Below, in pieces: positions 36,001 through 39,000 of a DNA stretch of 64,000 bases. The first letter of the stretch is position 1, and every line of letters starts with the position of its first letter. Position numbers: made by a program. This DNA comes from an uncultured Candidatus Rokubacteria bacterium. Lineage in GTDB: Bacteria; Methylomirabilota; Methylomirabilia; Rokubacteriales; CSP1-6. Location of the stretch: assembly GCA_963789955.1 (NCBI GenBank), contig CAWBMV010000006.1, forward strand, positions 416,001 through 480,000. The letters are read 5' to 3'.

Positions 36001-39000
36001 GAGCGCGGCGCTGACCGGGATCACCCGGCGCGTGAGCCCGCACACCTTGCGCCACACCTTCGCGACCCATCTGCTCGATGCCGGCGCCGATCTGAGAATG
36101 ATCCAGGAGCTCCTCGGCCACAGCCGGCTGTCGACGACGCAGCGCTACACTCACGTGGGCTCCGACCAGCTCATGCGCGTCTACGACGCCGCCCATCCGC
36201 GCGCTCGCGCCAAATGAGCCGAAAAACGAGCTCGAGCGAAGGAACGGGCGTGCGGAGCCACGCCGCGTCTGTGTCAGGCCACCCTCGGCCCAAGCCGGCC
36301 TCACGGACCTCGCTACAACAGTCCTCGCTACAACCATCCCGACAGATTAGATCGACGACCGTGGTCGCGGTGCGACATCGCGGCCAGGTGGCGGTCGCCG
36401 GTGACGGTCAGGTCTCCATCGGCAACACCATCGTCAAGGCCGGCGCCCGCAAGGTGCGAAAGCTCTACGGCGATCGGGTCGTGGCCGGGTTCGCGGGAGC
36501 GGCCGCCGACGCGTTCACGCTCTTCGCGCGATTCGAGGCCAAGCTGGAAGAGCACCGCGGCAACCTGTCGCGCGCCGCGGTCGAGCTCGCCAAGGACTGG
36601 CGCTCCGATCGCGTGCTGCGCCGGCTCGAGGCGCTCCTGGCGGTGGCCGATCGCGAGCACTCGTTCATCGTCTCCGGAACCGGCGACGTCATCGAGCCCG
36701 ACGACGGCCTGATCGGCATCGGCTCGGGCGGCCCGTTCGCGCTGGCCGCCGCGCGCGCGCTGATCGCCAACTCCGACCTCGACGCCAAGACGATCGCGAC
36801 AGAAGCCATGCGCGTCGCCGCGACGATCTGCGTATTCACCAACGACCACGTCACGGTCGAAGTCCTGTGACGCCGAGCCACGCCGCATCGTCGGCAAGAA
36901 CGGGCGTGCGGAGCCGGGTCGCACCGATCTCAGGCCACCCCCGGTCCAAGCCGGCCTCAAGGACCCCGCTACAATGACCGATTTAACCCTCACCCCCGCG
37001 CAGATCGTCGCCGAGCTCGATCGCTACATCGTCGGCCAGCAGAAAGCGAAGCGCGCGGTCGCCATCGCGCTCCGCAATCGGTGGCGGCGGCAGAACGTCC
37101 CGCCCGAGCTGCGCGACGAGGTGGCGCCCAAGAACATCATCATGATCGGCCCGACCGGCGTCGGGAAGACCGAGGTCGCGCGGCGACTGGCCAAGCTCTC
37201 GCAAGCGCCGTTCTTGAAGGTCGAAGCCTCCAAGTACACCGAGGTCGGCTACGTCGGGCGCGACGTCGAGTCGATGATCCGAGACCTGACCGAGCTGTCG
37301 GTGAACATGGTCAAGGCGGAGATGACGGCCCGCGTGCAGGAGCGGGCGGAGCAGCTTGCGGAAGATCGCCTGCTCGACGTGCTGCTGCCGCGCCGGACCG
37401 AGCCGTACTCGTCGAGCTCGCTCGAGGAGGTCACGCCCGACGCCTCGCGCGAGACGACCAAGGACAAGCTCCGCCAGCAGCTCCGAGCCGGAAAGCTGGA
37501 CGACCGGCTCGTCGAGCTGGAGATGCAGCAGCAATCGCTGCCGATGATCGAGGTCCTGTCCGGCCAGGGCATGGAGGAGATGGGCATCAACCTCAAGGAC
37601 ATGCTCTCGAACATCATGCCGAGCCGGACCAAGCGCCGGAAGGTGCGCGTGGCCGAGGCGCGGCGGCTCCTGACTCAGGAGGAAGCCCAGAAGCTCGTGG
37701 ACATGGACGAGGCGGTGTCCCAGGCCATCCGGCGGGCCGAGAACTCGGGCATCATCTTCCTGGACGAGCTCGACAAGGTCGCCGGGCGGGAAGGGGGCCA
37801 CGGCCCGGACGTCAGTCGGGAGGGGGTCCAGCGCGACCTGCTGCCGATCGTCGAGGGCTCGTCGGTCACGACCAAGTACGGGGTCGTCCGCACGGATCAC
37901 ATCCTGTTCATCGCCGCCGGCGCGTTCCACGTCGCCAAGCCGTCGGACCTGATCCCGGAGCTCCAGGGCCGCTTTCCGATCCGCGTCGAGCTGGACCCCT
38001 TGACGCGGGACGATTTCGTCCGCATTCTTACCGAGCCTCGCAACGCGTTGATCACGCAGTACGTCGAGCTCTTGAAGACGGAACAGGTGACCCTCCGGTT
38101 CGCCCCGGAGGCGGTGGAGGCGATCGCGGAGATCGCGATGCAGGTGAACACGAGCACGGAGAACATCGGCGCCCGGCGCCTCTATACGGTGATGGAAAAG
38201 CTCCTCGAGCAGATCTCGTTCGATGCGCCGGATCTTCCCGGCAAGGAGCTGACCATCGACGCCGCGTACGTGCACGACCGCCTGAGCGACATCACGCGGG
38301 ACCAGGACCTGTCGAGGTTCATTCTGTGAGCACGCCGGTGATAGATCCGCGGCGCGTCGAGATCCTGCTCGAGGCCCTGCCGTATATCCGCGAGTTCCGC
38401 GGAAAGACCATCGTCATCAAGTACGGCGGCGCGGCGATGGAGCGGGCCGACCTCAAGGATCCGTTCGCGCTGGACGTGATCCTCCTGCGCCTGGTCGGGA
38501 TCAATCCCGTCATCGTCCACGGCGGTGGCCCGCAGATCGGGGCCCTGATGAAGCGGCTGGGCAAGGAGCCGCGCTTCGTGGGCGGCATGCGCGTGACCGA
38601 TCAGGAGACGGTGGAGATCGTCGAGATGGTGCTGGTCGGCAAGATCAACAAGGAGATCGTCGGCCGCATCAATCACAACGGGGGCAAGGCGATCGGCCTT
38701 TCGGGCAAGGACGCCGGCCTCCTCCGGGCGCGCCGGCGACCGCATCGGCTGCCGACCGGCGAAGAGGTCGACATCGGGCTCGTCGGCGAGGTCGAGGCCG
38801 TCAACGCCGAGGCCATCCGGCTCCTCACGGACAACGGCATCATCCCGGTCATCGCGCCGGTCGGCGTGGGGAGCGGTGGGGAGACGTACAACATCAACGC
38901 AGATCTCGTCGCCGGCGACATCGCGTCGGCTCTGCGCGCCGAGAAGCTGATTCACCTCACCGACGTCCAGGGGATCCTCGACGTCGACCGCCGGCTGGTC

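Follow-up and report, generated by a model that had tools for sequence, protein, structure and literature searches.

The question raised by the junction between hslV and hslU is how hslU comes to start on the last letter of a dispersed repeat. In an earlier note on this DNA the repeat was described as an intercistronic element of about 80 nt that brings its own Shine-Dalgarno (SD) box and often the AUG, hence as a leader for the gene behind it. The reading weighed against it here is that the repeat passes on ribosomes from the gene in front of it. By the window we mean the whole stretch of DNA analysed, 64,000 nt in length, to which all coordinates refer, and by the host genome the 6.77 Mb (87% complete) that were searched for further copies.

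The repeat family and its insert between hslV and hslU

The host genome was searched with a profile made from 39 of its own seed copies, which returned 55 matches at E<=1e-3, rising to 66 when E<=10 was allowed. The earlier count had been 56 copies; the 55 found here group into 43 sites. Three copies lie in the window (27930-28002, 36243-36318 and 36899-36974), the last of them where the element had been located, with the hslU ATG at 36974; the three tandem sites reported on contigs C1 and C37 are present as well. What is conserved is a 66-nt core (22 codons) with a fixed 3' end. The 5' linker upstream of it is not the same from site to site or from species to species, and is often built of incomplete copies of the core's beginning. 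The repeat stands and its extent of about 80 nt does not, the unit being the core plus a variable linker; at hslU the insert has 107 nt and is longer than the coordinates it had been given.

Orientation was counted at 45 sites, representing 58 matches at E<=0.2, with a rough gene caller of our own: the repeat is co-directed with the downstream gene at 38 of the 45 and with the upstream gene likewise at 38, as had been claimed. Among the 42 full copies, ATG follows directly in 23 (18 ATGA, 5 ATGG) and GTGA in 2, where 21 direct ATGs had been reported, and the element often gives the A of the AUG; the abutment on start codons is borne out. The absence from Rfam was reproduced too, with four chance matches in 36000-38000 and none on the element at E<=10.

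The repeat is real and family-specific, and was found almost only in one Rokubacteria family. It was detected by blastn in 27 of 61 genomes of that family, the host genome included, and by patterns in 30/96 other family genomes and in 0/24 other genomes of the order. A core pattern was present in 40/93 other family genomes and in 1/57 genomes outside the family, there as a single occurrence, and its reversed-pattern control gave 0. In a named collection, among the 80 matches listed, 69 had titles of Rokubacteria or Methylomirabilota and none of Mycobacterium; of the others, 8 came from one record set labelled Binatia, 1 from Acidobacteriota and 2 were unlabelled. Viral contigs, plasmids and phages gave 0 matches. 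Three unpublished genomes (G009, G023 and G117) are counted in the range tallies, and none of the conclusions depends on them.

The features that the argument needs are the following.

27930..28002, forward strand: third copy of the repeat, crossed by the C-terminal frame of an ActD-family gene, whose TGA (28006-28008) overlaps the next ATG at 28005
35336..36217, forward strand: gene of a xerC-like tyrosine recombinase, upstream of hslV
36214..36870, forward strand: hslV, whose ATG overlaps the xerC stop; the TIGR03692 match begins at residue 48, so 47 residues precede the start of the profile
36243..36318, forward strand: second copy of the repeat, in frame within the N-terminal extension of HslV (probable propeptide)
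36867..36977, forward strand: bridge mini-ORF of 36 codons, presumably translated; its GTG overlaps the hslV TGA and its own TGA overlaps the hslU ATG (both -4)
36868..36974, forward strand: complete insert between hslV and hslU, 107 nt (2 mod 3), made of the duplicated TGA, the variable linker and the 66-nt core
36868..36871, forward strand: left copy of the TGAC direct repeat, from the comparison of filled and empty contigs
36871..36908, forward strand: variable 5' linker containing a degraded, incomplete copy of the core's beginning; linkers at this site vary among species
36909..36974, forward strand: conserved core, 66 nt (22 codons), whose final A is the A of the hslU ATG
36959..36963, forward strand: SD-like AAGGA, 10 nt 5' of the hslU ATG; these letters of the core are variable in the family
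36970..36975, forward strand: TACAAT, resembling a -10 box and overlapping the hslU ATG
36974..38329, forward strand: hslU, named by its HslU match
36975..36978, forward strand: right copy of the TGAC direct repeat, from the same comparison of contigs

In relatives, hslV and hslU usually overlap by [AG]TGA. Contigs assembled from the public runs X15 and X5 carry an empty allele, in which 36867 is joined to 36975 and 107 nt are skipped. Four letters (TGAC) fit on either side of this joint; it follows that the insert is 36868-36974 and that the stop was duplicated. The empty-allele contig from an RNA library has flanks of 166 and 185 nt with 13 differing letters (about 96% identity). A contig of the RNA run X16 goes from hslV into a variant element, assembled contigs being no proof of a transcript. 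Among 15 genomes of the genus the junction is empty in 5, holds a forward copy in 8, an inverted copy in 1 and end-remnants in 1. Of the 9 filled junctions, 7 keep an unbroken chain of frames, the one with the inverted copy among them. On a tree of hslV and hslU (19 rows, with 4 outgroups that are all empty) filled, empty and inverted alleles interleave. Well-supported sister pairs join a filled and an empty allele (G000/G074, G064/G061) or a forward and an inverted one (G065/G072). Such interleaving implies repeated gains, exact losses or both.

Stops and starts at the ends of the element

Gene frames were scored by a hexamer model trained on the host genome, walking from the upstream gene through overlapping stops and starts. 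We kept the sites that were co-oriented and callable, 31/43 in the host genome and 69/141 in relatives, and dropped those that were short, uncallable or not co-oriented (12/43 and 72/141, respectively). Two sites with Ns were removed and orthologous sites were merged, which left 67 deduplicated sites; two loci from unpublished genomes were excluded from all site statistics. For roughly half of the loci in relatives the choice was made with a fixed pattern, and assembly indel errors break some chains and may fake others. The p-values of these statistics overstate, because the copies share ancestry.

We considered as direct those starts that lie at the 3' end of the element, which was the case at 38 of the 67 deduplicated sites. 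Precisely, 36 of these 38 starts read [AG]TGA, compared with ATGA in 289 of 694 ATG genes that are SD-led and free of overlap (p 2e-11). Because the AUG is nearly always within [AG]TGA, it shares letters with the stop of a frame that runs through the element from the upstream gene's stop. Ribosome entry into that frame is lacking at 9 of the 38 direct-start sites and at 18 of all 67. Where it is present, 22 of 29 direct-start sites show stop/start coupling (p 3e-6 when tested against one third); of the remaining seven, four are fused in frame, one is coupled one link later, one stops nearby and one is out of frame. The host genome alone gives 8 of 13 (p 0.035).

The same overlap marks the other border, since the upstream stop is [AG]TGA at 40/61 sites, against an overlapping start at 199/671 control gaps (p 4e-8). 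A stop codon comes directly after the core in 66/96 sense copies and in 0/8 antisense copies (p 2e-4). Tandem steps keep the frame in 35 of 47 cases, 28 of them stop-free multiples of three and 7 by way of an overlap, and 24 of the 47 steps have an identical period of 66 nt. Frame-keeping inserts range in length from 65 to 341 nt, and chains reach up to three mini-ORFs. At the 32 bridged sites the shared repeat is TGA alone, with a further match of 0.59 nt versus 0.39 nt by permutation (p 0.09), so that a duplication going beyond TGA was not accepted as a general rule.

A plainer test, which compares intact chains with random frameshifts, was not significant in the host genome (17/31 versus 14.6 expected, p 0.18) and modest after deduplication (37/67 versus 28.7, p 0.006); it is weak because a +1 shift turns the bridge into an in-frame fusion. 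An earlier run with strict thresholds, which kept 18 of 45 sites, was likewise not significant (7 versus 5.8, p 0.30). The host genome has a second intercistronic repeat, a hairpin, at which the chain is kept at 5/29 sites only. Homology between the two repeats was rejected (score 30 against 28.2 +- 3.6 for shuffled sequences, p 0.31).

It is the length of the frame that is conserved, not the peptide. In fact, in one subfamily the core is read in another frame, with an extra A before the TGA as compensation, and counted by distinct types there is no synonymous excess in any of the six frames (26/74 against 0.32 expected); the raw-count excess (0.43-0.44) is equal in three frames. A peptide function was rejected on these synonymous types, which are at expectation, and on the absence of a Pfam match, the bridge mini-ORF at 36867..36977 having none.

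The element rebuilds a stop/start overlap that existed before; it does not add a free-standing leader. As a whole, the repeat is better read as a translational relay than as an SD leader. It is probably a non-autonomous ribosome relay of the kind of the MIRUs (mycobacterial interspersed repetitive units), reportedly described by Supply et al. in 1997, with translation itself deduced from the arrangement of codons. Filled and empty alleles show that the repeat inserts where translationally coupled genes overlap by NTGA, and that TGA is left on both sides. In the sequence, the main frame of the core is free of stops and its last letters are CAA, which together with this TGA rebuild ATGA. The GTG or ATG that overlaps the upstream stop is kept and opens a mini-ORF that ends on the downstream start; at other lengths the frame of the upstream gene extends through the element at its C-terminal end, or that of the downstream gene at its N-terminal end, as in the probable HslV propeptide. 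Ribosomes finishing the upstream gene could begin anew on the mini-ORF and once more on the downstream gene, which would make the insertion near-neutral and let it survive, the peptide of the mini-ORF itself being presumably junk. The orientation bias, the frame arithmetic and the tandem periods of 65/66 nt would follow if inserts that break the relay are mostly purged. A fixed 3' end, a ragged 5' end and local duplications of the latter hint that the repeat spreads through a copy-in mechanism run by an enzyme in trans, and exact loss may occur through the flanking TGA repeats.

Leader, mobile repeat or promoter

The strongest of the competing readings takes the element as a portable cassette for translation initiation, in which its own SD box and AUG make the downstream start independent of upstream translation, as in Neisseria REP2. 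The direct ATG after 23 of the 42 full copies and the nine direct-start sites without upstream entry speak for it. The host genome does use SD sequences, with a GGAG peak at -12 to -10, and the box of the element sits farther upstream than this native peak. AAGG or GAGG was scored in 16/31 copies of the host genome and in 29/137 copies of relatives. The box is thus missing from most relatives' copies, among which GCGG, without SD character, is the commonest (55/137), and a start adjoins 23 of these 55. In favour of the cassette, a start accompanies 19/29 relatives' copies with an SD-like box and 43/108 without it (p 0.02); the same association in the host genome is not significant (p 0.29). 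Pairing with the anti-SD was calculated for 25 start-abutting copies: its median, -4.1 kcal/mol, is intermediate, weaker than that of native genes (-5.0 for 1806 non-overlapped and -5.8 for overlapped genes) and stronger than the -2.6 of random DNA. Again in favour of the cassette, 8 of the 25 pair at -5 kcal/mol or better. A cassette also predicts neither the fourth base A of the direct starts (36/38) nor the frame bias, the [AG]TGA of the upstream stops or the stops that follow sense copies. We hold this reading to be unlikely. Of the SD leader claimed for the element, the abutment on the AUG stands; the SD part is weak, with an inconstant box and a median pairing below native strength, and the start overlaps a stop. 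SD-like boxes may help at some sites, notably at the nine direct-start sites without entry, and are at most secondary helpers.

As another alternative, the repeat could be a decayed REP of the GTAG type or a MITE, whose frame pattern goes back by accident to the length of a single founder and to a TGA target, selection playing no part at the individual sites. The reverse strand of the element's 3' end opens with T-GTAG, the consensus fold keeps a weak stem on the reverse strand, the inverted copy in L232 also has TGA behind its own 3' end, and the plain chain test is weak in the host genome. Against this, there is no stable fold (z from -1.10 to 0.90 in seven folds; mean -0.11, with 1/40 below -2) and no consensus RNA structure in the forward direction, which agrees with the earlier claim that conservation lies in the sequence and not in a fold. 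No terminal inverted repeat was seen by eye, and the 5' end is ragged. Frame is kept across inserts of 65 to 341 nt, and a stop follows none of the eight antisense copies.

As regards a mobilising enzyme, Y1_Tnp (PF01797) is absent from the host genome (87% complete) and from all 14 genomes with at least 12 matches, and present in 14/61 overall; no copy of the element was near any of the family's 16 Y1_Tnp loci. A RAYT/REP origin was ruled against by these two results. The reverse transcriptase RVT_1 and the DDE_3/IS630-type transposase were not found in the host genome (again 87% complete), whose mobile-enzyme matches were 1 IS110, 1 DDE_Tnp_1 fragment and 9 rve; among the transposase and reverse-transcriptase families searched, none that mobilises the repeat was found. 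Taken together, a GTAG-type REP or MITE appears very unlikely.

The remaining alternative is a mobile promoter, in which leaderless transcripts would begin from the terminal GCTACAAT, acting as a -10 box; the earlier note had itself raised UACAAU as a possible -10 box. Native genes do have TANNNT 12-14 nt ahead of starts (among 230 such sites, 11 have TACAAT and 3 have GCTACAAT), and a start lies 5-7 nt behind the box in 1/31 copies of the host genome and in 3/137 of relatives (4/168). A -10 box that overlaps the ATG would start the transcript past the AUG. Such overlap is found in most start-abutting copies, among them TACAAT at 36970..36975, which therefore cannot drive hslU from there, and the letters behind the terminal T of the core are mainly GA, AA and AG, making stop codons in 41/66 cores, so that a promoter is highly improbable.

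Comparison with known repeats and the other copies in the operons

The relay that we prefer has its closest parallel in behaviour among the MIRUs. According to the available excerpts, MIRUs insert at start codons with an internal ORF coupled at -4, which probably spares the gene (PMC12548453), contain overlapping small ORFs without dyad symmetry (PMC4473831) and measure 40-100 bp in 40-50 copies with tetranucleotide repeats, G-C-rich inverted repeats having also been seen (PMC3184786). As far as these excerpts go, the likeness covers size and setting, a 66-nt core in 55 copies at 43 sites standing beside units of 40-100 bp in about 40-50 dispersed intercistronic copies. It extends to co-orientation with the neighbours (here 38/45 sites on each side) and to a small ORF at -4 to both of them, represented here by 36867-36977 and by 22/29 direct-start entry sites, with 18/67 sites lacking entry. 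It is completed by short direct repeats seen when filled and empty sites are compared, by expansion in tandem, and by little dyad symmetry (here a fold z near 0).

The differences are of several kinds. The host belongs to Rokubacteria and not to Mycobacterium, and the likeness is one of described behaviour, not of compared sequences. The direct repeat is mostly the 3-nt TGA, with 4 nt (TGAC) at hslV/hslU, whereas the excerpts give a tetranucleotide for MIRUs. The element further has 5' linkers that vary, fusions at C- and N-termini (the HslV propeptide among them), as many as three mini-ORFs in a chain and a single inverted insert in which the relay persists. We regard the element as something that seems to work like a MIRU but do not class it as one, because of its host and because the likeness is one of behaviour.

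Neisseria REP2, which according to the excerpt of PMC3184786 supplies a promoter and a ribosome-binding site as well as an ATG and has internal stem-loops, would be the nearest match to the SD-leader reading. From what that excerpt tells, the two share the lack of terminal inverted repeats, the position ahead of unrelated genes and the ATG that is brought along. They differ in that the element has a start sharing letters with a stop, an SD that is not constant, a -10-like box lying across the ATG and no conspicuous fold. The GTAG-tagged REPs, as the excerpt of PMC3733652 has them, are palindromes of 20-40 bp with an unpaired GTAG and RAYT transposases. To that extent they resemble the element in the GTAG at one end (here on the reverse strand) and in their extragenic position between co-oriented genes; the element differs in its 66 nt, the lack of a palindrome and of a RAYT in element-rich genomes, its direct tandems and its place at start codons. 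BOX, RUP and BRE, again in the excerpt of PMC3184786, extend the 5' or 3' ends of genes in frame, as the element does, although here fusion is a minority outcome of insertion aimed at stop/start overlaps. A MITE is set apart by the ragged 5' end, the lack of a stable fold and, by eye, of terminal inverted repeats. No description of the repeat in Rokubacteria, or of its layout under other terms, was found in the literature searched, which lay mostly outside subscription journals and supplements.

The relay would extend to a family of soil Rokubacteria a way of life that the excerpts of PMC12548453, PMC4473831 and PMC3184786 describe only for mycobacteria, and add to it comparative statistics as well as filled, empty and inverted alleles. 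Such sites offer natural tests of termination-reinitiation, since the relay would have to span junk codons, from 20 up to more than 100 of them, within essential operons.

A bolder version of the relay, which we put forward as doubtful, would make the element an unstructured junction parasite. Having no transposase of its own, it would be moved by machinery of the host and return repeatedly to the same stop/start overlaps in either orientation. It would also be a tuning device, in which the proportion of downstream to upstream subunit (HslV/HslU, complex I, alternative complex III) depends on linker length, on frame and on an SD acquired by some lineages, and it would rewrite N-termini such as the HslV propeptide. 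If this were true, the wild filled and empty alleles would make the mechanism of MIRU-type spreading testable.

The other copies bear on gene ends in the same operons. In the gap between xerC and hslV the element is present in 11 of the 15 genus genomes, with the chain intact in 10 of these 11, and there it is mostly an in-frame extension ahead of the mature N-terminus of HslV. This element-coded extension is presumably removed as a propeptide, as we would expect from HslV-type threonine proteases. The ActD-family gene upstream of the third copy is frameshifted in the assembly, and a frameshift is present also at the purD site. Annotation of these genomes calls for caution, since false N-termini, gene fusions and spurious small proteins arise from these copies. 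Upstream of nuoH, finally, the site is empty in 8 and filled in 7 of the 15 genus genomes, with 6 of the latter intact, and in some species the old N-terminus of NuoH has been replaced by the element.

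Distribution and local structure of the element

Of the 43 sites that hold copies of the element in the genome under study (G000), 37 were on contigs C1, C6, C12, C34 and C37, which together make up 3.7 Mb and contain 322 called -4 overlaps (upstream stop overlapping downstream start), and the other 6 were on the remaining contigs (3.0 Mb, 166 called -4 overlaps). This uneven spread may reflect either a heterogeneous bin or a preference of the element for core operons. A genome titled as Binatia also carried the element, at sites (L107, L108, L117, L120, L125, L144, L151 and L154) orthologous to those of G000, and it may be a mislabelled Rokubacterium.

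The linkers contained local, in-frame tandem duplications of up to 7 units (linker at C12:267147 of G000; L088, L095 and L108 in relatives), and the terminal 12-15 nt of the core were often repeated downstream, for example at 36319-36333 of the window. Two copies in G000 adjoined, in reverse, the 3′ ends of putative tRNAs, as judged by eye:
C1:454307-454376, element copy next to a putative tRNA 3′ end
C34:297318-297375, element copy next to a putative tRNA 3′ end

The hslV-hslU junction in other genera

At the hslV-hslU junction of other genera we found inserts unrelated to the element (L005, L025, L026, L027 and L029), those of L025 and L027 being units that extend from an ATGA to the following ATGA. 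This junction is a hot spot at which several families of repeats insert.

Motifs before starts and frameshifts

Genome-wide, TANNNT was present 12-14 nt upstream of the start in 230 of the 4329 genes of G000, which points to putative leaderless transcripts. Frameshifts within conserved genes fused or split ORFs in G000; the two listed here are probably assembly errors:
C6 near 246070, frameshifted purD-like gene
window 27363-28008, frameshifted ActD gene

Other dispersed repeats

A second family in G000, a G+C-rich hairpin of ~52 nt (61 copies genome-wide; mean fold z of -2.3), had no detectable homology to the element. Its copies were mostly between co-oriented genes, just after stop codons, and seldom formed a stop/start coupling relay. 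G000 also contained a third repeat, some 150-200 nt long, in which long, variable inverted arms flanked a conserved core, a layout resembling that of a MITE or REPIN; the core word was found in 14 copies. Copies include:
window about 48667-48718, hairpin family
C1:137398, C6:255001, C23 near 12100 and others in G000, third repeat
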